NCBI RefSeq assembly: GCF_050320075.1
Contig: NZ_CP190018.1
Strand: one strand, 5' to 3'
Length of the DNA stretch: 64,000 nucleotides
Source of the DNA: Escherichia coli
Lineage (GTDB): Bacteria; Pseudomonadota; Gammaproteobacteria; Enterobacterales; Enterobacteriaceae
A program made the translations under genes and the position numbers. Shown in pieces: positions 1 through 11,825 of the stretch (the stretch's first letter is position 1; every line of letters starts with the position of its first letter). The notes beneath the pieces are model-generated. The model worked only from the letters and a program-made list of their open reading frames with translations. It had not been told where the DNA came from and did no database searches.

Positions 1-539
1 AGTGAAAGGACCATTGTTGATCGCACAGCCTGTTGGTAACGCTGAATTTGCATTGCATACAAACTGGAGTCTGCAGGTTCAAACTGTGGCGGCGGTGGTA
101 ACGCCGCCACGCAATGCAGTTCACCAAAGGGTCCAAGGATTTCGTCGTCGGTAAACGCGTACTCGTTGCCGTCGTGATTTAGCTCTTCACGCAATGCCAT
201 CAGCAGTTCCGCATCTTCGTATTCCTGGCGGTTAATGACACCCAACCCGTAAATGAGTTTTAAACGCACAGAAAGATCGCCCAGCGGACCGTCGCCGTCG
301 AGTAACGGTTCTACAGCATACTTCACCGCGTAATCGTCTTTGCGGAATACCTGAAGCACCAGAAGATTTACCGCCTCGGTCAAAAGCTCGACGGCGGTGA
401 TCAGAAAGCTTCGCACGGTTTTGCCAGCATTCAGACGCTCAAGCACACGGTTTTCAAAGGCCTGGGTTTGTTCCATTGTTGCCTGCATATCTGACAATCT
501 GTTATTCGGGCGCAGGGTATCCTGCGCCTGGTCCACCAT
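1..539 (-). CDS. mtlR: Mannitol operon repressor MtlR (3' end lies beyond window start; about 179 of 195 codons present)
   Basis: Reverse-strand translation from ATG at 537-539 gives [36 protein letters not shown]..., recognised as MtlR; start overlaps the mtlD stop (TAATG). Confidence 0.85.
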   Translation of the reverse strand, partial: MVDQAQDTLRPNNRLSDMQATMEQTQAFENRVLERLNAGKTVRSFLITAVELLTEAVNLLVLQVFRKDDYAVKYAVEPLLDGDGPLGDLSVRLKLIYGLGVINRQEYEDAELLMALREELNHDGNEYAFTDDEILGPFGELHCVAALPPPPQFEPADSSLYAMQIQRYQQAVRSTMVLS

Positions 540-1687
540 TATTGCATTGCTTTATAAGCGGTTACTGCCTCGGATACAACCTCGCTGTTGGCATCAAGAC
601 CGGAAATCTGTGCCAGCGCGGCTTGTGGGCCTTTGTCGGCAATCAGCGCTGCCAGTTCCTGAGCCTGCGGATCATCTTCACTGCGGAAGTGCATTGCAGC
701 GGCAATACCTTCAATCAGGTTTTTATGTGGCAGACCATATTCCAGCGTTCCGAGCAGTGGCTTGATCAGACGGTCGCCAGCACTCAGTTTACGCAGCGGC
801 TGACGGCCTACGCGCTCTACATCATCTTTCAGATACGGGTTCTCGAAACGACCGAGGATTTTCTGGATGTACGCCGCATGTTTGTCCGCGTCAAAGCCGT
901 AGCGCTTGATCAGTACCGCACCGCTTTCTTCCATCGCACCTTTTACCACCGCGCGGATTTTCTCGTCGAGAATCGCATCACGAATGGTCTGATGACCGGC
1001 CAGTTTTCCGAGGTACGCGGTTATAGCATGACCCGTGTTCAGGGTGAAGAGTTTACGTTCGACAAATGCCATTAGGTTGTCGGTTAACTCCATGCCTGGG
1101 ATGTTCGGCAGCGCGCCTTTGAACTGCGTTTTATCAACAATCCATTCGCTGAATGTTTCTACCGTCACTTCCAGCGGATCGTTGGTTGCAGAAGCCGAAG
1201 GCGGCACGATGCGGTCAACGGCGGAATCGACAAAGCCAACGTGTTCTTCTACCCACGCTTTGGCATCTTCCGGCAGGGCGTTCATCACATGGCCTTTCAG
1301 CTGCGTGGTGCCGCGTACCATGTTTTCACAAGCGATGATGTTCAGCGGGGATTCATTACCTTGTTCTTTACGTTTCACCAGCCCTTTGGCGATTGCCGGG
1401 GCAATACGTTCCAGCACAACCGGACCAACGGCGGTAGTGACTAAATCAACCTGAGCAATCAGATCAACGACATCATCACCAATGCTGCTGACGGCATTGA
1501 CGCCGGAAACGGTATCTACCTGCTCGGTTTCACCGACCACATGAACCTGATAGCTATGACGGGCATTCAGGGCATCAAGTACCACCTGATTGACATCGGC
1601 AAACGTCAGTTGGATACCCGCGTCTGCCAGCAGTTTACCGATAAAGCCACGACCGATATTACCTGCGCCAAAATGTAATGCTTTCAT
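539..1687 (-). CDS. mtlD: Mannitol-1-phosphate 5-dehydrogenase (382 aa)
   Basis: ORF track 539..1870 trimmed to the internal ATG at 1685-1687 ([15 protein letters not shown]..., Rossmann GxGxxG); the upstream 61 codons run through REP sequence and are not coding. Confidence 0.93.
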
Positions 1688-1699
1688 AGTATTAACCTT

Positions 1700-1915
<216 letters not shown>

Positions 1916-3829
1916 TTACTTACGACCTGCCAGCAGTTCCAGCACTTCATCCACGCTGGTGGTGTGTGCCAGACGCTCGATGACAGACTCATCATCCAGT
2001 GCATTGGTCAGGCTGGTGATAACCTGAATGTGCTCGTTGTTACGGGCAGCAATACCAATCACCAGACGGGCAATGTCATCTTCTTCTTCACCGAAGCGCA
2101 CGCCTTCCGGGTACTGGCAGAACACCACGCCCGTTTTCAGTACGCGATCTTTCGCTTCAACCGTACCGTGCGGTACCGCGATGGACTCACCCAGATAAGT
2201 CGGGGTCAGTTTTTCACGATCCAGCATCGCCTGAACGTATTCCGGCTCAACGTAACCGCCTTTCACCAGCTGCTCGCCAGCAAAACGAATCGCTTCTTCT
2301 TTGGTGGCCGCTTTACGACCGAGGAAGATGTTCTCCGCGCCTAGCTTGAACAGGTTAGCACTGGAATCATCAAAGCTGTCTTTCAGACTGTCTTTCACTT
2401 TCACTTCGTTTTCAGTATGGCGCTGGGCAGCAACCAGACGTTCGGTCAGGCTGGTGTACAGGCCGCTGTCGAGGAAGTTGGTCAGCGAAATATGCTGTGC
2501 CTGCGGAACCTGGCGCATAGCGCGTTCGGTCAGGTCACGGTGAGTGATGACCAGGTCCACATCTGGCGGCAGGTTGTTGATCGCGCTGTTAGTGACCGAA
2601 ATCTGCGACAGACCTGCATCCTGAATTTTCTTACGCAGCACACCTGCGCCCATCGCACTGGAACCCATACCGGCATCACAGGCAACGATGATTTTACGTA
2701 CGTGGCTCAGGTCGTTAGTCACATCGCCCGCAGACAGCGGAGACGCGCCTTTAGACTCAGCTTTCATGTCCTGCATACGACGAGTTGCTGCTTCAATATC
2801 ATCTTCTTCTTTCACTTTGCTGGTTTTCAGCAGAATGGCAGAGACAACGAAGGAGACAGCCATCGCCGCACACACACCCGCGATGTTAGCGAAGTATGCA
2901 CCTTTTGGTGTCATCGCCAGTACAGCAAGGATAGAACCCGGAGATGCCGGAGAAACCAGACCACCGCCCAGGATAGTCAGCGTGAACACGCCAGTCATAC
3001 CACCGAGGATAACGGCCAGAATCAGACGCGGATTCATCAGCACATACGGGAAGTAGATTTCGTGGATACCGCCCAGGAAGTGGATGATTGCCGCACCGCC
3101 CGCAGACTGTTTAGCGCTACCACGACCAAAGAACATGTACGCCAGCAGCACGCCCATACCCGGACCTGGGTTAGCTTCAATCAGGAAGAAGATGGATTTA
3201 CCCAGTTCATGGGACTGCTGAATGCCCAGCGGCGAGAAGATACCGTGGTTAATGGCGTTGTTGAGGAACAGGATTTTCGCCGGTTCAACAAAGATAGACG
3301 CCAGCGGCAGCATGTCATGGACAACCATGAAGTTAACGCCCGCAGCCAGCATTTTGGACAGGGCTTCAACAATCGGGCCAATGCCGAGGAATGCCAGAAT
3401 AGCGAGGATCATCCCGATGATGCCTGCGGAGAAGTTATTCACCAGCATCTCAAAACCGGATTTGATCTTACCGTCTACCCAGCGGTCGAAGTGCTTAATG
3501 CACCAGCCGCCCAGCGGACCTGCAATCATAGAACCTAGGAACATCGGCATGTCTGCGCCGACGATAACGCCCATGGTGGTAATGGCACCGACTACGCCGC
3601 CACGTTCGCCGCCTACCAGCTTACCACCGGTATAACCGATCAGCAGCGGCAGGAGATAAGTGATCATCGGCCCGACCAGCTTCGCCAGCGTCTCGTTCGG
3701 TAACCACCCTGTTGGAATAAATAACGCGGTGATGATACCCCACGCGATAAACGCGCCGATATTTGGCATCACCATGTTGCTGAGGAAACGACCAAAGCTT
3801 TGCACTTTGATCTTAATATCGGATGACAT
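1916..3829 (-). CDS. mtlA: PTS mannitol-specific EIICBA component (637 aa)
   Basis: 637-aa ORF recognised as MtlA: membrane EIIC domain, then EIIB and C-terminal EIIA domain. Confidence 0.95.
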   Translation of the reverse strand: MSSDIKIKVQSFGRFLSNMVMPNIGAFIAWGIITALFIPTGWLPNETLAKLVGPMITYLLPLLIGYTGGKLVGGERGGVVGAITTMGVIVGADMPMFLGSMIAGPLGGWCIKHFDRWVDGKIKSGFEMLVNNFSAGIIGMILAILAFLGIGPIVEALSKMLAAGVNFMVVHDMLPLASIFVEPAKILFLNNAINHGIFSPLGIQQSHELGKSIFFLIEANPGPGMGVLLAYMFFGRGSAKQSAGGAAIIHFLGGIHEIYFPYVLMNPRLILAVILGGMTGVFTLTILGGGLVSPASPGSILAVLAMTPKGAYFANIAGVCAAMAVSFVVSAILLKTSKVKEEDDIEAATRRMQDMKAESKGASPLSAGDVTNDLSHVRKIIVACDAGMGSSAMGAGVLRKKIQDAGLSQISVTNSAINNLPPDVDLVITHRDLTERAMRQVPQAQHISLTNFLDSGLYTSLTERLVAAQRHTENEVKVKDSLKDSFDDSSANLFKLGAENIFLGRKAATKEEAIRFAGEQLVKGGYVEPEYVQAMLDREKLTPTYLGESIAVPHGTVEAKDRVLKTGVVFCQYPEGVRFGEEEDDIARLVIGIAARNNEHIQVITSLTNALDDESVIERLAHTTSVDEVLELLAGRK

Positions 3830-3972
3830 AAAAACACCCCTTCTTATGTTTGCTGTCGCGCAGGCTGGAAGCCCGAGGTTTTTTGTTAATGTGGCGGCAG
3901 AGGTAGCCGGACCTTGTAGATACTGCGAAATCTGGCACTGAATCGGTTAACTGTCCAGTCGACGGCCTTTTG

Positions 3973-3988
3973 TGTGATATCAGTCACA
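3973..3988. promoter_or_regulatory. CRP site (TGTGA-N6-TCACA) upstream of mtlA
   Basis: Perfect half-sites tgtgatatcagtcaca; the mtl promoter is known to be CRP-dependent with multiple sites. Confidence 0.7.
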
Positions 3989-4015
3989 TAAATATAGGGG
4001 GTAGAGAGGTAATTG

Positions 4016-4033
4016 ACGTGATGCTCATCACAA
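4016..4033. promoter_or_regulatory. CRP-like site in mtlA/yibI divergent region
   Basis: cgtgatgctcatcacaaa, near-consensus. Confidence 0.45.
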
Positions 4034-4089
4034 AACTCTTGTGTAAAAAAGCAACAAGGCGGCGATTTTCGCTAAAAATGGCATTTAAA

Positions 4090-4105
4090 TGTGAGTGATG
4101 TCACA
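4090..4105. promoter_or_regulatory. CRP site in mtlA/yibI divergent region
   Basis: tgtgagtgatgtcaca, perfect half-sites. Confidence 0.65.
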
Positions 4106-4133
4106 TTTTTATTTTGATGGTTTGTTGAATCTT

Positions 4134-4149
4134 TGTGATCTGAATCACA
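4134..4149. promoter_or_regulatory. CRP site in mtlA/yibI divergent region
   Basis: tgtgatctgaatcaca, perfect half-sites. Confidence 0.65.
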
Positions 4150-4365
4150 AGATATTTTCTTACGGCGTTCACCTGATGTGATCTACAGCATGTTATGCCT
4201 TCGTCATGAAATCGTTATGTAACTAAGCAACTCATCACCTCTTAAAATTATTCTTTGGTGTTATGGCGAGAATCGCGAACCCGGATTATTGTCAAAATAT
4301 CAGCCTGACTCCCTTCTGGCTGCCAGCCAAAAAACAACACTGATAAACGTGAATCCGAGGCAGAT

Positions 4366-4728
4366 ATGTTTCTAAACTATTTCGCGTTGGGAGTGCTGAT
4401 CTTCGTCTTTCTGGTGATTTTTTATGGAATCATCGCGATACATGACATCCCTTATCTGATTGCCAAAAAGCGCAACCATCCCCATGCCGACGCTATTCAT
4501 ACGGCGGGCTGGGTGAGCCTGTTTACTCTACATGTTATCTGGCCGTTCCTGTGGATCTGGGCGACGCTCTATCAACCGGAGCGCGGCTGGGGCATGCAGT
4601 CACATGTTGCGTCGCAAGAGAAAGCGACTGACCCGGAAATCGCCGCACTTTCTGACCGAATTTCCCGGCTGGAGCATCAACTCGCCGCCGAGAAAAAGAC
4701 TGACTATTCCACGTTCCCGGAGATCTAA
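4366..4728 (+). CDS. yibI: Small inner-membrane protein YibI (DUF3302 family, 120 aa)
   Basis: ATG at 4366 preceded by gagg RBS; two hydrophobic helices; recognised as YibI; paralog of yiaW at 19625. Confidence 0.85.
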
Positions 4729-4730
4729 AT

Positions 4731-5867
4731 ATGGATCTATTGATTGTTTTAACTTACGTGGCGCTGGCGTGGGCGGTCTTTAAAATCTTCCGCATTCCGG
4801 TGAATCAGTGGACGCTGGCGACGGCGGCGCTGGGAGGCGTGTTTCTGGTGAGTGGTTTGATTTTGTTGATGAACTACAACCACCCTTACACTTTTACCGC
4901 GCAAAAGGCAGTGATAGCGATCCCCATCACGCCACAGGTGACGGGAATTGTTACTGAAGTCACTGACAAGAATAATCAGCTTATTCAAAAGGGCGAGGTG
5001 CTTTTTAAACTCGACCCGGTTCGTTACCAGGCGCGAGTTGACAGACTTCAGGCTGACCTGATGACGGCGACGCATAATATAAAGACGCTGCGCGCGCAGC
5101 TCTCTGAAGCGCAGGCCAACACCACCCAGGTTTCAGCGGAGCGCGACCGTCTGTTTAAAAATTATCAACGTTATCTGAAAGGCAGCCAGGCGGCGGTGAA
5201 TCCGTTCTCGGAACGTGACATCGACGATGCGCGGCAAAACTTCCTCGCGCAGGACGCGCTGGTGAAAGGCTCGGTGGCGGAGCAGGCGCAGATCCAGAGC
5301 CAGCTCGACAGTATGGTTAACGGCGAGCAATCGCAGATTGTGAGCTTAAGAGCGCAACTTACTGAAGCAAAATATAACCTTGAGCAGACTGTCATTCGCG
5401 CGCCGAGCAATGGCTACGTTACTCAGGTACTGATCCGCCCAGGTACATACGCAGCTGCCTTGCCGTTGCGTCCGGTGATGGTTTTCATCCCCGAGCAAAA
5501 ACGGCAAATTGTCGCCCAATTTCGGCAAAACTCGCTGTTACGTCTGAAACCCGGCGATGATGCGGAAGTGGTGTTTAACGCGCTACCTGGGCAGGTGTTC
5601 CACGGCAAACTGACTAGCATTTTACCTGTCGTGCCAGGCGGTTCTTATCAGGCGCAGGGGGTATTGCAATCATTAACGGTCGTGCCCGGCACGGACGGTG
5701 TGCTGGGAACCATTGAACTGGACCCTAACGATGATATCGATGCCTTACCCGACGGCATCTACGCCCAGGTGGCGGTTTACTCCGACCATTTCAGCCATGT
5801 TTCGGTGATGCGGAAAGTGCTGCTAAGAATGACCAGCTGGATGCATTATCTTTATTTGGATCATTGA
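4731..5867 (+). CDS. yibH: HlyD-family membrane fusion protein YibH (378 aa)
   Basis: ATG 3 nt after yibI stop; N-terminal TM helix, coiled-coil region; paralog of yiaV. Confidence 0.85.
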
Positions 5868-6324
5868 GGGGGGCGGGGGAGATTATGGAACTTTGCTCCC
5901 TGCAAGGACTAATTATTTTTGCATATTATTTCATCGGCTGTGATGATTTTTCGTTAATATCCATTATGTTAAGAAGTTCGGGATGAGTGTGAACTCATTG
6001 GATTTTTTATCCGTCTTGATCTGCCGAAGGATCAGACTATACATTGTCGAGATCGCAATGATGATATGAGTTGTTCCTCTGCCACGGCTCTAATCAAAAA
6101 AGAGCAGGAGTGCTTTTCCATCTATTGCGATGATGGCTTTATTATCTGAAGGATGACAGTCACATTTAAAAATATTTAATTTATAGATCACAATGTAGGT
6201 TCATGTAATATATGTATACAACTATTTTTCTCTTCACTTTTAATTATCGTATTCATTATAACACTAAGTTAAAAAAACTCCTGGAGAGTGAGTTATTAAT
6301 ATGTTTTTAAATATAATTAAGTTA

Positions 6325-6846
6325 TTATTCATCGATGCATTTTATAGAATCATCAATGGCTACAATAGTACTATTAACTCTCCAATTTATATTTTTATTA
6401 TCATTGCAAATATTAACTGAATCTATATCAATGATTTTTTTATTTTTATCTTTTATTTTGTTTACAGTTTCAATGCAATCAGCGACAAGTTGGTGTGGAT
6501 TTAGATTCTTCAGATATGGTCTTATGATCTTTCCCTTGCTTAATAAATAGCATGTATAGGATTCGGAAAGTCCAGCATCTATTTTGTACATCATTATTCT
6601 AGATAAGGATGTGAGAAATGCCTTGTTATCATTAGCAGCCATATATGCCAGTCCGAGTTCAGCCTCTGCGGCTTTACATGAAAAATAGCTAAGTGAACAC
6701 GCTTTTCGTCCCTCTTGGGTACTGGCTGATATTAGTGCCCATAATATTGCCTTGTCTGCCAAATCCAACTCTCTCTGAAATTGGTTTACAGTAACTGCAT
6801 TCGCAGAAATAGAGAAGAAAAGCACAATTGTTAATAACCTTGTCAT
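6325..6846 (-). CDS. Hypothetical secreted protein (173 aa) in rhs-associated AT-rich block; possible orphan immunity protein
   Basis: N-terminal signal peptide MTRLLTIVLFFSISANA; starts 4 nt after the stop of the decayed rhs-relic ORF; very AT-rich codon usage. Confidence 0.5.
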   Translation of the reverse strand: MTRLLTIVLFFSISANAVTVNQFQRELDLADKAILWALISASTQEGRKACSLSYFSCKAAEAELGLAYMAANDNKAFLTSLSRIMMYKIDAGLSESYTCYLLSKGKIIRPYLKNLNPHQLVADCIETVNKIKDKNKKIIDIDSVNICNDNKNINWRVNSTIVAIDDSIKCIDE

Positions 6847-6850
6847 ATTT

Positions 6851-7190
6851 CTAGTCCGTCACTGTTAATGTGCTATCTGGCTCTGAAAATATTAGCTCAT
6901 TTAATTTTTGCATGTCATTAGATGAACCAGTTATACAACCCTCGGAACAGAATCGAGGTCCTAAAGATGGACCAAAAGCGTTTAAACAACTATGTGTTAA
7001 AAATCCATCACGATTATACGTTTCTGTATTTGCTGACGGTACTAAACGTATACCATTAGGTTTTCTATTGGTTGCTCCAGGACTGTTAAGCAAGCCTCGT
7101 CCGGTTTGCTTCATTGAGTTCTCCACTTTAGACTATTGGACTATCTTTCAACATGGCATCGCCTTAGTATACCGCTGGTTTTCCGCTCAT
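6851..7190 (-). pseudogene. Decayed relic of an rhs/PAAR-type 5' end (frame-disrupted)
   Basis: Minus-strand frame from ATG at 7188-7190 reads MSGKPAVY*GDAMLKDSPIV*, compare intact rhs N-terminus [21 protein letters not shown]; adjacent frame (ORF track 6851..7126) has GIRLVPSANTE, compare [11 protein letters not shown] in rhs. Confidence 0.55.
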
Positions 7191-7214
7191 TGTTAATTTT
7201 CTCTTTCGTTCATT

Positions 7215-7625
7215 TCACTTAATTTTCAGTTTTTTCCAAAAGTCAATATTCCCTTCTAATAAAATTTTTTCTATGGAATCTTCATTAATTTTATTATTAG
7301 AGCATATGACATTATCTTGAACGCCATATGACACCACCCCGTTTTTATCAATATAATATCTGTCTTTACCATCAATAATATAAATCCTAACATTTTTATC
7401 ATCAAAATGGTAACACTCATTACTAGACCTGTTCAGTAACATTAATAACTTCTCACGATTTATCTGTAATAATTTTTGTGCACCATCTTTTATTGCAAAA
7501 TTTTCAATTTTACTTTTAGTGACAGGGGAATATGTTTGGATGCGAAAAGGCATCCTATAATGGAAAACATCAGCTATACAGCAAGATGAAAAAAATACGG
7601 AAATAAAATACAGACATACTTTCAT
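7215..7625 (-). CDS. Putative Rhs immunity protein (136 aa) with N-terminal signal peptide or lipobox
   Basis: Sits 57 nt downstream of the rhs stop on the same strand; strong RBS aggag 5 nt before ATG; N-terminus MKVCLYFISVFFSSCC; AT-rich. Confidence 0.6.
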   Translation of the reverse strand: MKVCLYFISVFFSSCCIADVFHYRMPFRIQTYSPVTKSKIENFAIKDGAQKLLQINREKLLMLLNRSSNECYHFDDKNVRIYIIDGKDRYYIDKNGVVSYGVQDNVICSNNKINEDSIEKILLEGNIDFWKKLKIK

Positions 7626-7682
7626 ACCATCTCCTAAACTGGTGATATATTAAAAACATACCCAAAAGCAATATAAAAATGT

Positions 7683-10600
7683 TTAATATTTCATTCTTGC
7701 TGGCAAGCCCAACTCTTTACGAAATGGGTTTTCATATTTATCAACATTAGCCATCGAGTCAGTTCCATCGTCTTTCATTCCCTTTGCATGCCCCATTTCA
7801 TGCGCAAGAACCACACTCAACAGAGTGGGTTTCATGGCACATGCTTTGTTTTTTCCTTGATATACACATGAGCTATGGTCGTTATCAATATCAATGTAAA
7901 AACTATATTCAGTATCATCGTAGCATGTTTGGTTTATGCCTTTTCTTAATCCTCTAAATATATATTCATGCTCTGATGACTCTAATTCTTCTGTTATTTT
8001 ATGTCCAAACTTTGTTTCTGCTACAGCTTTATATGCTTCTTTTAAAGTTTTTTGTGTACTTTCATCTCCCTGAAAAGACACTTTTAACCCTAATGGATCG
8101 AAACCAGATACCGGATTCAACGGATACTGATAAAAATTCCATCCCCCCTTAAGCCCAATCGGATCCTGAGTGATATACCGCCCCTGCAGCGGGTCATAAT
8201 AGCGGTGGCGGTTGTAATAGAGGCCGGACTCCTCATCATACTGCTGACCCGGCAGGCGGATGAGCTGCTGCAGCTGGTGCGGGTTCTCTTCATTCAGCAG
8301 GTTGCCCCATTCATCGTATTCTGCGCACCATTCTGTTGCCCCTTCCGTGCTGACAAGCGCCAGCGGCAGGCCGCGATGGTCGCAGTGGTACAGGTGGATT
8401 TTTCGCGCCGGCGTGTACACCGGGTCCATCTGGTTTTGTATCTGCTCCACCGTCAGGCCGCACGATGCCAGCCAGCGGCGGCTTTCCTCACTCACCCGGT
8501 CAGCCAGGATTTCACTTTCCAGCCGGTCGAGCATCTGCACCAGCACCGGCGGGAACACCACACTGCCACCGTCTTCACCGCCGGACTGCTGAAGCGCATC
8601 CGCCAGGCTGCGGCGCTGCGTTTTCGCCAGCTCACCGGTGGCAGTTTCAACTCTGATGAGTGGCGTGAAGCTCCCCGGCTGATAAACCGTCTGGATGCGG
8701 GTTCTGTCGTTCTGTATTGTGGTCAGCCGGTCGCCGTCCCAGCCGTACCAGGTCACTTCCGGTTTCCGTGACAGCGACATCCAGCCCGTCAGGTCCCGTT
8801 CACGCCGCCACACCCGTTTTGCCACCCTGCGGCCCAGCGGGTCGTAAAGATAGCGACTTTCGACCAGCGGCTCTGCATATTGTGTCCGCGTGTAGTGCAC
8901 CAGCCGGTGCCGGCTGTCGTAATGATACCGGTGAGTCCGCTCATCATCCGTGCGGATAACCCCTTCCGGGATGAGGTCGGTTTTCTCTGTCAGCCTGCCG
9001 TGACGGTCATACCGGTAAAGATAGTGCGCGTCACGGGCGATACGGTTATCCGGCCACATGCTGAGGGTGCTGTCCGGGTGCAGCTCCGGGTCGGGCAGGC
9101 GGTTGCCTGCCGGGTCCGTGGCATACGGGATGCGGATATCCAGGTTCGCTGCCGTGGTGTGGACGCCGGTCAGCCTGCCGGTGTCGCTGTAGCTGTAACT
9201 CCGGGTCTGGCGCGGGCTGCTGATGCGGATGAGTTCGCCGTTGTCGTTCCAGGTGTAATCGCGGTCATACTGCAGGCTGTTCAGGTGCTGGCTCTGTAAC
9301 TGCCCGGCAGAGGTGTAAGCGGTGGTGAGTTCATAACGGCCGAAGCTGCGCAGCGTTTCCCGGTGCAGGCGGTCGCGGGTGTACTCCACCAGCGGTGTGT
9401 CGCCGAGTTTCATGCCTGACAGCCAGCCGCTGCCGTAGGTCAGCCATTCCACGGCGGGCAGGCTGTCCGGTATACAGCGGTTCGCCAGTCCCTGCGCGTT
9501 GTAAGCGTGTCTGGTTTCATGCTGCCAGAGCAGTGCTTCCGTCTGCGGGTGATGCACCGTCTGGCGCTCACCGGTCAGGCGGCCTTTCTCATCATACCCG
9601 TAATGCACCGTCACCCGGTGGCCTTCGCTGAGATGGCTGATGCCTGTCAGCCAGCCGCGTTCGTCATACTGCCACTGCTCTGCCGGTTCACCATTCACCG
9701 TTCGCTGTGTGATGCGGTCTGCTTCGTCATAGTGCCAGTGGGTGACCAGCCCCTCATCCTCGCTGCGGATAAGTTTGCCGGTCAGGTCGTGGTGATAACG
9801 CTGTGTGCGGCCGTCAAAGCCGGTTTCCTGTATCAGCCGGTCAAGTACATCGTAACGGAAGGTGGTGTGGCTGCCGTTTTCACTGGTCAGGCGGATGACC
9901 CGCCCGGCAGCATCGTATTCCATACTGCGCGTCAGACCGCCCTGCGTGGTACGAACGGGCTTTCCCCACGCATCGTACTGTGTCCCGTTTCTGCTGCCGT
10001 CCGGGGCAATGACGGCGGTCAGGTCACCGGCGGCGTTGTATTCATACCGCGTTTCATGGCCCTGCGTGTCTTTCACCGCAATTAACTGTCCACGGCTGTC
10101 GTATGCGCGGTACTGACTCAGCCCTTCCTCGCGGTGCACCGCCGTCATCTGACCAAAACGGTCATGGTCATAACGGGTTACATAACCGGAACAGTCAGTG
10201 ACGGTCAGCAACTGACCGTAACGGCTCCATGTCATGGTTTTCCGGCTGCCGGTGGCATCCTCCGTTGCGCAGGGTAAGTCACTGTGTGGATTATCATAAC
10301 GGTAGCGGGTGATATCGCCGTTGTGTGCGGTTTCCTGAATCAGACGGCCGGATTCATCATATTCCCGGCGCAATTCCAGCCCGTCAGGCCCGGTGGCTGA
10401 CGTTAACTGGCTGTGGTGGTTATAGTAAAATGCCGATGCCCTGCCATCCGGTGTGGTGATGCGCGTGATGAGTCCCGTCACCACATCCGGGCTGTACTCA
10501 GTCGTCCGGCCTGCGGCATCCGTCTGTGCCTTAAGCCTGCCCACCGCGTCAAACTGACTCTGCGTGACGCTGCCGTCCGCGTGTTCCTTTTTCACCACCC

Positions 10601-11825
10601 GCTTCAGCCCGCCTTCGCCCTGCGTGTGCAGCACTTCACGGCGGTCCAGACTGTCGGTGATGGTGATGCGGTCTTTCTCATACTGATACGTGTAGCTTAA
10701 GCCTGCCGGGTTTAGCTGCTCTGTCACCCGCCCGTCGCTGTCGTAACGGTAACGGATTTCTGGCCGGCCCGCGCGGTGGTGCGCCACCATCCGGCCCCGG
10801 TATTTATCATCGTAAGTAAAGCTGCGCACCTGTTTGCCACTGCGGTCATACACCGCCGCCAGTTCGCCGCGTGGCGTCCAGCCATAGCGCACCAGCGGCG
10901 CGGCAGGTAAATTCTCCGGGTATTCCGGGTCGTGTGTCAGCCACACGGCAGACAGACGGATACCGTTGTCCCGGCCATATTCCGTGTAGTCCGGCAGGGT
11001 ATCAGGAAAAGCGGACGGTTCCGTCCCGCCGGAAGAGGCCTGCTGCCGGGCCTCTTCTGCCCGCTGCGCCTGCGTGGTCAGTACCAGCCGGAAGTGACGC
11101 CCGGCACCATCCGTCACGCCGGTGATTTCGCCGCTGAATTCACCGCCAGCCTCACGGTGAAACGTCTGTGTGCGCCCGAAGCGGTCCACCAGCCCGGTCA
11201 GTACCCGGTACGGCGGCAGCGGCGCGGGCAGCACCTCATCCGCTTCCGGCACCCGCTCACACCAGCCGAGCAGCCACCACGGCCCCTGCGGACTGTTTGT
11301 CGCCAGATAACGATGCGGACTTAAGCGGAGTTCTTCCGGCAGCGCCTGCCAGAGTGCGGTCAGCCGGTGACCTTCATCCAGTTTCAGGACACCGCCACGC
11401 ACCAGCCAGAGTGACTCGCTGCGGCTGTAACCGTCCTCACCGGGAAACAGGTGCTCAAAATACAGGCTCCTGCCGCCGTTATCACTGAGTATCAGTGTGT
11501 TATCGCGCAGCTGTAGGCGGATATCCGCAGGCATTTTCCAGCCGGGGCCGAGGCTCCCCACCGGCGCGGGCGTTTTTGTCCGGTAACTGCTGTAGGTGCG
11601 GGAGAGGATGAACGGCAGCGGGCCGGGCAGGGCAAGGTCGGTTTCGCCGGGAAGGACCTTCGCGCCGAGCAGCGGATTGACCGGATGGCCGGACGTCACC
11701 CCGCCGGGGCACACCGAACAGGCCACGCCGGTGGGGGCACCGATGCGCACCCCGGCTGAACCCTGGACAATGCTACCGCCATACTGCGTCATGTCGCCCT
11801 GACGCGCCGCCGGTTTTCCGCTCAT
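7683..11825 (-). CDS. rhsA: Rhs-family polymorphic toxin (1380 aa) with PAAR-like N-terminus, YD-repeat core and variable C-terminal toxin tip
   Basis: N-terminus [11 protein letters not shown]..., many YD repeats, core ends ...[28 protein letters not shown]; the gene symbol reflects locus position (next to yibF-selAB), not the toxin type. Confidence 0.9.
7686..8084 (-). other. Rhs C-terminal toxin domain (133 aa after DPLGL) with HExxHxxGxxD motif
   Basis: Motif [12 protein letters not shown] encoded at 7770-7802; sharp drop to AT-rich composition begins at the DPLGL boundary (8085-8099). Confidence 0.6.

Follow-up and report, generated by a model that had tools for sequence, protein, structure and literature searches.

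A truncated Tlde1-type orphan Rhs tip and a decayed rhs-start relic between two immunity genes at the rhsA locus of Escherichia coli

[quoted passage not shown] The earlier note, made from the sequence alone, had taken 6851-7190 as one eroded copy of an rhs/PAAR N-terminus followed by a second secreted small protein. We found that most of this interval derives from an orphan Rhs C-terminal tip, of which the 3' half is left, that about 70 nt resemble an rhs start, and that a recombination junction lies between the two. The best explanation overall, which we consider quite probable, is that a cassette was imported into a Tlde1 orphan tip at rhsA while the Imm57 gene was spared. Within the rhsA toxin locus of E. 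coli, the interval forms the oldest and innermost layer, now half deleted, and its arrangement is ordinary and largely annotated already. The features are as follows.

7683..11825, minus strand: full-length rhs, 1380 aa (open reading frame list; PAAR-type N-terminus)
7215..7625, minus strand: 136-aa immunity candidate, partner of the zincin tip (open reading frame list; hydrophobic N-terminus)
7090..8267, minus strand: proposed imported cassette of ~1.18 kb, approximate extent (BLAST of L021 against the MLI114 locus L019)
7121..7190, minus strand: rhs-start relic, an ATG and about 23 codons, with TAA stops at codons 9 and 21 (rhs alignment)
7090..7120, minus strand: cassette tail, without detectable similarity to rhs or the Tlde1 tip
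7082..7089, minus strand: recombination junction (alignment with the intact Tlde1 allele; BLAST breakpoint)
6851..7081, minus strand: 5'-truncated orphan Rhs C-terminal tip of Tlde1/DUF2778 type, the last ~77 codons and TAG stop
6325..6846, minus strand: intact Imm57-family immunity gene, 173 aa (Pfam Imm57 PF15596; RefSeq WP_000197506.1)
5932..6163, minus strand: internal fragment of an ISEc1 (H-repeat/ISAs1) transposase gene, between Imm57 and yibH

The gene order was rhs, 136-aa immunity gene, Tlde1 fragment and Imm57, all on the minus strand. The GC content was 0.38 in the Tlde1 fragment and 0.34 in Imm57, as compared with ~0.62 in the rhs core, which is the pattern of an AT-rich tip with a small immunity ORF. 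The rhs gene is named 'RHS element core protein' in RefSeq; its core end matched the NCBIfam models RHS_core and Rhs_assc_core, and it terminates in a zincin-type toxin tip, which has an HEMGH motif and matches Pfam Peptidase_M91 weakly (E=0.001). The 136-aa immunity protein had no Pfam, NCBIfam or PADLOC family. The transposase fragment aligned over 234 nt with the L001 copy of the ISEc1 transposase gene, at 79% nucleotide identity. No RNA families were detected in the interval at E<=1, and no relevant defence-system proteins were found there.

The 173-aa ORF was confirmed to start 4 nt past the TAG of the upstream 91-aa ORF, which contains the Tlde1 fragment. It matched Pfam Imm57 (E=2e-44) through residues 30-127, covering model positions 2-100 of 100, and RefSeq names the protein 'Imm57 family immunity protein'. 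Both in the window and in intact alleles, the gene is located directly downstream of the Tlde1 tip, an LD-peptidase-type neighbour. Its N-terminus, MTRLLTIVLFFSISANA, with MTR, a hydrophobic core and ANA/V, looks like a Sec signal, and the product is a putative periplasmic protein. What the earlier note called a second secreted small protein thus belongs to the Imm57 immunity family and is not a new secreted protein. With its toxin partner truncated, Imm57 is now an orphan immunity gene. We found no terminator-like sites in 5900-7800, and promoter-like sites were no commoner than in shuffled sequence; transcripts of rhs and the 136-aa immunity gene probably read through into Imm57, whose product may guard the cell against Rhs toxins with a Tlde1 tip that other strains deliver. 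The gene has been lost by IS1 insertion or deletion in some strains (L028, L033) and is a frameshifted pseudogene in most E. coli, which argues against strong general selection on it.

Upstream of Imm57, 6851..7081 was 99% identical to L001 6001-6233. Strains HCM-24C-3 and FDAARGOS_497 carry an orphan Rhs-CT whose 3' half is 99% identical to this stretch; RefSeq names that orphan 'tlde1 domain-containing protein' (the intact tip lies in the WP_072020486.1 region), and it is preceded by the Rhs core end ...YITQDPIGL...DPLGL. In the intact allele (HCM-24C-3), the Pfam Tlde1_dom model (PF10908) was matched at positions 10-106 of 120 (E=2.2e-7), whereas the window ORF matched only at positions 66-107 of 120 (E=1.3e-3) and did not extend across the domain. 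The 91-aa ORF keeps the catalytic motif H-x15-SEGC-I (H45 and S61-E-G-C64-I), of which the His and Cys were invariant in 12 homologues (H134 and C153 in family alignment numbering), and it lacks the conserved N-terminal motifs ASGNNG, CKNNP and NRGPIPQG. Every homologue of the tip opens with the DPxGL end of an Rhs core and has the invariant His and the SEGC motif. The core 3'-end fragment with its PxxxxDPxGL motif is present in the homologous allele at L001 5691-5798 and absent from the window copy, where it was lost by the truncation at ~7082-7089. The window tip is thus a truncated derivative of an orphan Rhs C-terminal tip module. The interval had been described as not a C-terminal orphan tip; about 235 of its 340 nt (6851-~7085) are exactly such a tip, and for most of its length related strains carry an unrelated intact gene, tlde1, an outcome that the earlier note had named as a refutation. 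Likewise, the likeness of GIRLVPSANTE to rhs was coincidental, as this stretch belongs to the Tlde1 domain and reads G[RH]RLVP in Ralstonia and Paraburkholderia homologues.

A PDB sequence profile search with the tip gave matches only on Rhs, TccC and teneurin core ends, and none to Salmonella Tlde1a. The AlphaFold model of the intact allele was of low confidence (mean pLDDT 57.6); with this model, the top 50 PDB matches in Foldseek were all L,D-transpeptidases, at weak scores (E 2e-3 to 0.14, TM 0.3-0.4). From these comparisons, the intact tip is predicted to be an L,D-transpeptidase-like toxin that would act on peptidoglycan in the periplasm. No full-length Rhs carrying this tip was retrieved in the homologue search.

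At the other end of the gap, the minus-strand ATG at 7188-7190 opens a reading of MSGKPAVY, a stop, GDAMLKDSPIV and a second stop, as the earlier note had reported. Its first 19 nt (MSGKPAVYQGDAML...) were identical to the rhs start at 11825 at 18 of 19 positions, again as claimed, and encode the MSGKPA of the conserved rhs/PAAR start; rhs genes of E. coli and E. albertii, although diverged, have their first 23 nt in common. Within the 64-kb window, the degenerate 17-mer ATGAGYGGNAARCCNGC occurred only at the relic and at the rhs start, with 0 matches expected. Across 419 kb of loci, all matches to the 19-mer start at <=4 mismatches were true rhs starts or the relic, and ~0.1 chance matches were estimated for the full 19-mer at <=3 mismatches. 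The next 51 nt showed 23 identities to rhs in the same register; other offsets along rhs gave a mean of 12.5, and just 0.07% of them reached 23. Mismatches comprised 18 transitions and 10 transversions (P=8e-4 against a 1:2 expectation), with 15 of the 18 transitions in the GC->AT direction. At each of the two in-frame TAA stops (7164-7166 and 7128-7130), rhs has a CAG codon for Gln, and GD and IV were conserved in register. These two stops leave no open reading frame through the relic. Over nt 20-70, the relic was ~55% diverged from rhs starts. Farther on, 5 of 40 in-register positions were identical at 71-109, and local alignments there were not significant, scoring as shuffled sequences do. 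No homology through a PAAR-like domain (~80-90 codons) was found, the in-register similarity ending at about codon 23. The reading of 6851-7190 as a frame-broken, AT-shifted rhs start therefore stood for ~70 nt (7121-7190) and failed for the rest, and alignment of the interval to rhs 5' ends, which had been suggested as a check, succeeded to about nt 70 and no farther.

No intact relative of the relic turned up in the collections searched. None of 5.8 billion protein clusters shared even three 5-mers with the stop-corrected relic peptide, and a HMMER search of 1.84 billion representatives with this peptide returned one spurious match to a low-complexity repeat protein only. The back-translated pattern gave 0 DNA matches in 100,044 species representative genomes, and the exact relic 33-mer had 3 matches in metagenomes, every one in the same E. 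coli context. An intact ancestor, for which comparison with other E. coli genomes had been proposed, was found for the Tlde1 part and not for the relic. The relic is real but old, and its most likely origin is a decayed neighbouring rhs gene in the donor of the cassette. Because the Tlde1 fragment is 99% identical to intact alleles and the relic is ~55% diverged, the two differ in age.

At the junction (~7082-7089), the window and the intact Tlde1 allele have a TTAA..G microhomology in common. The match to other E. coli genomes begins at this junction, and the limit of coverage fell at query positions 138-143 in 3641 genomes. Homology to Tlde1 upstream of it was not significant, as 54 of 500 shuffles scored as high. 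The alignments place the junction between the relic and the Tlde1 fragment, two segments with different histories. The suggestion of an eroded second gene with its own partner was accordingly half right: the 173-aa ORF partners an eroded toxin gene, but the relic does not belong to the same gene as the Tlde1 fragment.

Comparison of two loci by BLAST revealed the extent of the change. L021rc 1-4824 and 6003-7275 matched 2111-6907 and 7206-8473 of the MLI114 locus (L019), so that the flanks were collinear and the difference was confined to the interior. In L021 and L026, a 1.18-kb cassette takes the place of ~300 nt, and this is the sole difference from the MLI114-type locus. The cassette contains an rhs core end, the zincin tip, the 136-aa immunity gene and a ~110-nt tail, with the relic at the right end; in these two loci the zincin module is an orphan. 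Together with the K-12-type pseudogenes, the intact orphan of HCM-24C-3 type, the MLI114 type and the window type, the L021/L026 type makes five arrangements in all. The ~300 nt replaced were the end of the core fragment and the 5' half of the Tlde1 tip of the older orphan; the left boundary of the cassette is imprecise, as it falls within homologous core sequence. The earlier proposal of a past rearrangement between rhs modules agrees with this comparison and with the junction.

The two sides of the junction were distributed very differently. The segment from 6300 to ~7081 was common to 3641 of the 5426 complete E. coli genomes at 92-99% identity, whereas just 180 of them shared 7060-7700, each copy being >=99% identical and located at rhsA; strain CFSAN061763 is an example of a carrier. 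The K-12-type allele, at 92% identity, has the same boundary between a short (~100-nt) core fragment and Tlde1, and the orphan state of Tlde1 therefore long predates the cassette event. Homologues of the 136-aa immunity protein were found in E. coli and E. albertii only. All 10 distinct E. coli contexts of its gene carried the same relic, and the gene was always followed by the relic, the Tlde1 fragment and the Imm57 region, except that Imm57 was lost in L028 and L033; the E. albertii homologue is followed by an H-repeat fragment and not by an rhs start. No donor locus, that is, no other context of the 136-aa gene or the relic, was found in the collections searched. Parsimony suggests that the relic arrived with the cassette.

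On this basis, we propose the following history. The last module next to yibH would have been an orphan Rhs C-terminal tip, consisting of a short piece of rhs core with DPxGL at its end, a Tlde1-type domain and a translationally coupled gene for a periplasmic Imm57-family protein. In one E. coli lineage, the left side of a ~1.2-kb cassette would have recombined with homologous rhs core sequence, and its right side would have joined illegitimately at the TTAA microhomology inside the Tlde1 tip. The cassette would have brought an rhs core end, the M91-like zincin tip and the 136-aa immunity gene, followed by about 110 nt of donor DNA; the toxin domain would have lost its first ~70 residues, inactivating the tip, with Imm57 left intact. 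The trailing DNA would open with the ~70-nt rhs ORF start, already decayed before arrival and most probably the remnant of a second rhs gene behind the immunity gene in the donor. Later recombination between the main rhs core and the orphan core fragment would have fused the zincin tip to the full-length rhs, with the L021-type arrangement preceding that of the window. The relic and the Tlde1 fragment are presumably inert today.

Other histories were weighed against cassette import. The interval could be the remains of one gene, in which a second full-length rhs with a Tlde1 tip behind the 136-aa gene was internally deleted from about codon 24-36 to mid-tip, the relic being the true 5' end fused to the true 3' end; intact-tip strains (MLI114, HCM-24C-3) would then be of separate origin, having lost the zincin module through core-by-core recombination. 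We regard this as unlikely, even though internally deleted rhs genes that retain the 5' end occur in Escherichia orphan arrays (L010) and the comparison of L021 with MLI114 formally fits either direction of change. A relic with ~55% divergence and two stops abuts a Tlde1 fragment 99% identical to intact alleles, and no relative of the relic turned up among the protein clusters or species representatives. The ancient orphan state of the K-12-type allele, already on its ~100-nt core fragment, and the failure to retrieve a full-length Rhs with this tip also stand against it. A single eroded PAAR-Tlde1 gene was rejected, because every tip homologue starts with the Rhs core end, none starts with MSGKPA, and the junction lies between the segments. 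The relic might also be the genuine 5' end of a divergent, unsequenced rhs class that once bore the Tlde1 tip, in tandem behind the zincin module, to which we give a similarly small chance.

That the relic is a chance or convergent match, an AT-rich spacer happening to contain ATGAGCGGAAAACC, seems highly improbable. The failed protein searches with the corrected peptide and the disappearance of rhs similarity after nt 70 would suit it, but the 18 of 19 identities fall exactly at the ATG, against the chance expectations given above for the 64-kb window and the 419 kb of loci, and the in-register identity of the following 51 nt, the transition excess, the stops at Gln codons and the retained GD and IV all speak against coincidence. 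A functional scar is also very unlikely, if slightly less so: the 8-codon ORF (MSGKPAVY and its stop) or the ORF from ATG 7112-7114 would couple translation into Imm57, or the fragment would be active or a decoy. The latter ATG, with GGAG 6 nt upstream of 7114, opens an 87-aa Tlde1 fragment ending 4 nt before Imm57, so that activity or a decoy role would concern a product of 87-91 aa. In favour of it, the fragment still ends 4 nt ahead of the Imm57 start, as in the ancestor, the 180 genomes do not vary in this arrangement, and no upstream terminator was predicted. Recent common descent accounts for this uniformity, as the copies are all >=99% identical and yield no selection signal; the fragment is without half of the domain, including invariant motifs, PGAP called no gene at it, and promoter-like sites occurred at the shuffled-sequence frequency. 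A related possibility is that the start region was retained because it drives translation into the orphan immunity gene.

Among known systems, the locus is nearest to the orphan ('dissociated') Rhs tips with immunity genes that arise by C-terminal displacement (Jackson 2009, PMC2935791; Poole 2011, PMC3150448; Koskiniemi 2014, PMC3967940), and tandem rhs genes are known in Salmonella Typhimurium (Jackson 2009, PMC2935791). As in orphan tip modules, an AT-rich tip and a small immunity ORF are stacked here downstream of a GC-rich full-length rhs, and intact alleles begin with an rhs core fragment ending in DPxGL; the recombination of main with orphan core proposed here is the process shown experimentally in Salmonella orphan Rhs systems. 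Unlike in standard displacement, the right end of the cassette lies inside the older tip rather than upstream of it, with the core fragment and first half of the toxin lost, and part of an rhs 5' end is included in the cassette. A similar rhs start was observed in E. albertii L010 (5895-6328), where, as in the window, it follows an immunity-type gene and precedes an orphan tip. The E. albertii relic retains 181-190 nt of the 5' end at 74-84% identity and ~260 nt of mid-core, whereas that in the window has ~70 nt and is far more decayed.

Tlde1/DUF2778 proteins are L,D-transpeptidase-like effectors of the T6SS with periplasmic immunity proteins (bioRxiv 10.1101/2020.02.18.954545; Lorente Cobo 2022, PMC9638812), and DUF2778-Rhs fusions were described for part of the family (Sibinelli-Sousa 2020, bioRxiv 10.1101/2020.02.18.954545). 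The intact allele resembles them in its Pfam Tlde1 domain, its His and [S/T]xGC Cys motif, and a partner with a signal-peptide-like N-terminus, but the copy in the window is a dead half of the domain. Salmonella Tlde1a is a distant relative of this subfamily and gave no PDB sequence match. Its H-x15-SEGC spacing is YkuD-like, whereas the His-Cys spacing of DUF2778 is generally shorter than that of YkuD (bioRxiv 10.1101/2020.02.18.954545), and the immunity protein is Imm57 rather than DUF2195. The association of Imm57 with Tox-LD-peptidase and RHS was predicted and tabulated for gammaproteobacteria (Zhang 2012, PMC3482391). The window conforms to it, with a full-length Imm57 match directly downstream of an RHS-associated LD-peptidase-type domain, and differs in nothing substantive except that the toxin is truncated and the immunity gene orphaned.

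This is a known kind of locus, in which one small scar had no annotation. For annotation, the 369-nt gap can be described as holding a truncated Tlde1-type Rhs tip and an rhs-start scar, and the locus illustrates clearly how a displacing cassette can cut with its right end into the older tip. If the relic did come from a divergent rhs class, whole rhs genes, beyond C-terminal tips, would be stacked and eroded in these arrays. As it stands, the finding raises no new question and extends the picture of C-terminal displacement slightly: rhs 5' ends can survive in orphan arrays, with a second example in E. albertii.

The gene order at rhsA in the window was selA, yibF, rhs, a 136-aa ORF, the flagged interval, a 173-aa ORF, yibH and yibI, with yibH and yibI on the plus strand and rhs and both ORFs on the minus strand. 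No Rfam family and no defence-system protein was matched in the region. The features were as follows:

7683-11825, minus strand: full-length rhs of the E. coli rhsA locus
7215-7625, minus strand: 136-aa ORF
7121-7190, minus strand: rhs-like relic, about 70 nt similar to the rhs start
6325-6846, minus strand: 173-aa ORF, Pfam Imm57
5932-6163: internal fragment (234 nt, 79% identical) of an ISEc1 (H-repeat/ISAs1) transposase gene

The transposase fragment lay between the Imm57 gene and yibH, and occupied the same position in strain HCM-24C-3.

The 173-aa ORF matched Pfam Imm57 over its full length (2e-44), and its N-terminus resembled a Sec signal when judged by eye from the sequence. The RefSeq records of HCM-24C-3 and FDAARGOS_497, whose sequence is 99% identical to the Tlde1-Imm57 stretch of the window, list two successive products: a 135-aa 'tlde1 domain-containing protein', which is intact, and after it an 'Imm57 family immunity protein'. 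Translated further upstream, the intact Tlde1 ORF ran on from an Rhs core end; it has the classical form of an orphan Rhs C-terminal tip. Pfam Tlde1_dom matched the intact allele (2.2e-7) over model positions 10-106 of 120, and the 91-aa ORF of the window over positions 66-107 only. We aligned tip homologues from E. coli, Ralstonia, Paraburkholderia, an Acidobacteriaceae MAG and metagenome contigs. Every homologue with its N-terminus present opened with an Rhs core end, and the common motifs were ASGNNG, CKNNP, NRGPIPQG and an invariant H...SEGC. Of this domain, the window retains only the part from ...PGATNRKPNG onwards, which includes H45 and SEGC64. The segment GIRLVPSANTE, which the earlier note had read as rhs-like, proved to be part of this Tlde1 domain, whose homologues read G[RH]RLVP there. 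A PDB search with the tip-family profile matched only the core ends of Rhs, TccC and teneurin, and a Foldseek search with a low-confidence AlphaFold model (mean pLDDT 57.6) gave weak matches, all to L,D-transpeptidases. The homologues retrieved from E. coli, Ralstonia, Paraburkholderia and the Acidobacteriaceae MAG were all orphan tips or partial ORFs of at most 248 aa. A word-indexed, non-exhaustive search yielded no full-length Rhs ending in this tip, which may be a sampling effect.

The minus-strand reading MSGKPAVY*GDAMLKDSPIV* from the ATG at 7188-7190 was reproduced, and the first 19 nt were identical to the rhs start at 18 positions, as claimed. The degenerate 17-mer ATGAGYGGNAARCCNGC had two sites in 64 kb, the relic and the rhs start, and none in 100 shuffles; with up to four mismatches, the 19-mer matched only genuine rhs starts or the relic in 419 kb of related loci. 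The next 51 nt shared 23 identities with rhs in an unchanged register, a number reached by 0.07% of other offsets along rhs (mean 12.5). Of the 28 mismatches, 18 were transitions, 15 of them in the GC-to-AT direction, and 10 were transversions; under a 1:2 expectation this excess of transitions has P=8e-4. Both TAA stops fell at rhs CAG Gln codons, and GD and IV were kept in register. Near-identity over the first 19-23 nt is no peculiarity of the relic; the same stretch was also identical between diverged E. coli and E. albertii rhs genes. Past about nt 70 the similarity was at noise level. Given the 19-nt match, the in-register identities and this loss, the relic is real yet only about 70 nt long, so that the proposed frame-broken rhs N-terminus held for 7121-7190 and not beyond.

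The main Rhs tip (7683-8120, minus strand) was zincin-type with an HEMGH motif, and weakly matched Pfam Peptidase_M91 (NleD-like; E=0.001). Its 136-aa partner had a hydrophobic, signal-like N-terminus, belonged to no known family and had homologues in E. coli and E. albertii only. The two may pair a metallopeptidase toxin active in the periplasm with its immunity protein, and they appear to be uncharacterised.

Of 5426 complete E. coli genomes, 3641 carried the stretch from 6300 to about 7081, in every case adjoining yibH. Identity to other E. coli began at about 7082-7089, where a TTAA..G microhomology was present. The 136-aa gene and relic (7060-7700) occurred in 180 of the 5426 genomes, every copy at least 99% identical and all sampled records at rhsA. 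The 136-aa protein had 10 distinct assembly contexts; the relic was at a constant offset in all of them, and Imm57 at constant spacing in eight. In two loci, L021 (metagenome contig OATN01000854.1) and L026 (GCA_019584725.1), the zincin tip, 136-aa gene, relic, Tlde1 fragment and Imm57 formed an orphan module. Ahead of it lay yibA and several further immunity genes, and the core upstream was no more than a fragment. L021 differed from the MLI114-type locus solely in that about 300 nt, the end of the core fragment and the 5' half of the Tlde1 tip, were swapped for a 1.18-kb cassette. The K-12/O157-type allele was 92% identical, with both tip and Imm57 pseudogenes; because it had the same core fragment of about 100 nt ahead of Tlde1, Tlde1 was an orphan long before the cassette event. 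Genomes with the window-type rhsA, such as strain NR329, also carried a second, K-12-type copy of the 5' part of the Tlde1 tip (85% identical). This copy lay at a different rhs locus, flanked by rpmE and yiiX/metJ and adjoining an ISAs1 pseudogene.

In the most parsimonious history, the left side of the cassette would have recombined within core sequence, its right side would have joined illegitimately inside the Tlde1 tip, and a later recombination of the main rhs with the core of the orphan would have fused the zincin tip to full-length rhs. The L021/L026 module suggests that the window rhs acquired its present tip in this way, and such recombination was demonstrated experimentally in Salmonella (Koskiniemi et al. 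2014, PMC3967940). The relic formed the first part of the cassette's tail of about 110 nt. It diverged by about 55% from rhs starts over nt 20-70, whereas identity to intact alleles was 99% in the abutting Tlde1 fragment; the two thus differ in age, and the relic therefore probably decayed before transfer, in the donor.

As to its source, no protein among 5.8 billion clusters had three 5-mers in common with the stop-corrected relic peptide, exhaustive HMMER matched only a spurious repeat protein, and the back-translated pattern had no match in 100,044 species genomes. Metagenome matches were all in the E. coli context already seen, and the E. albertii homologue of the 136-aa gene was followed by an H-repeat fragment rather than an rhs start. 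An independent case of an rhs 5'-end relic within an orphan array was found in E. albertii (GCA_032539325.1, locus L010, 5895-6328): an internally deleted rhs with its 5' 181-190 nt fused to about 260 nt of mid-core, flanked by a Sel1-repeat immunity-type gene and an orphan Ntox28 fragment with a CdiI_3 immunity gene. This array also held a homologue of the 136-aa gene. Salmonella Typhimurium has tandem rhs genes (Jackson 2009, PMC2935791). By analogy with these two precedents, our best guess is that the relic came from a decayed second rhs gene beside the immunity gene in the donor.

The start of the intact Imm57 gene retained the ancestral 4-nt coupling to the stop of the Tlde1 fragment, and no terminator-like site was predicted upstream. 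As an orphan immunity gene, Imm57 is probably co-transcribed with rhs, and we infer that the relic and the Tlde1 half-domain are inert. Imm57 was interrupted or replaced by IS1 in one locus carrying the 136-aa gene and relic (L028, 6411-8536) and was not called in another (L033, 1030-2365). Most E. coli, moreover, carry it as a pseudogene, so that selection for Imm57 is not general. In MLI114, the Tlde1 tip was intact and Imm57 frameshifted.

The earlier note, which described a decayed rhs/PAAR 5' end with a second secreted small protein, was thus confirmed in part as an observation and supported in part as an interpretation. The Tlde1, Imm57 and Rhs parts were already linked, since Zhang et al. 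2012 (PMC3482391) tabulated Tox-LD-peptidase, with RHS repeats, as the toxin to which Imm57 gives immunity, and Sibinelli-Sousa et al. 2020 (bioRxiv 10.1101/2020.02.18.954545) characterised DUF2778 effectors and mentioned Rhs fusions and an Imm57 prediction. The locus is of a known, largely annotated kind, and carries one small scar that lacks annotation.
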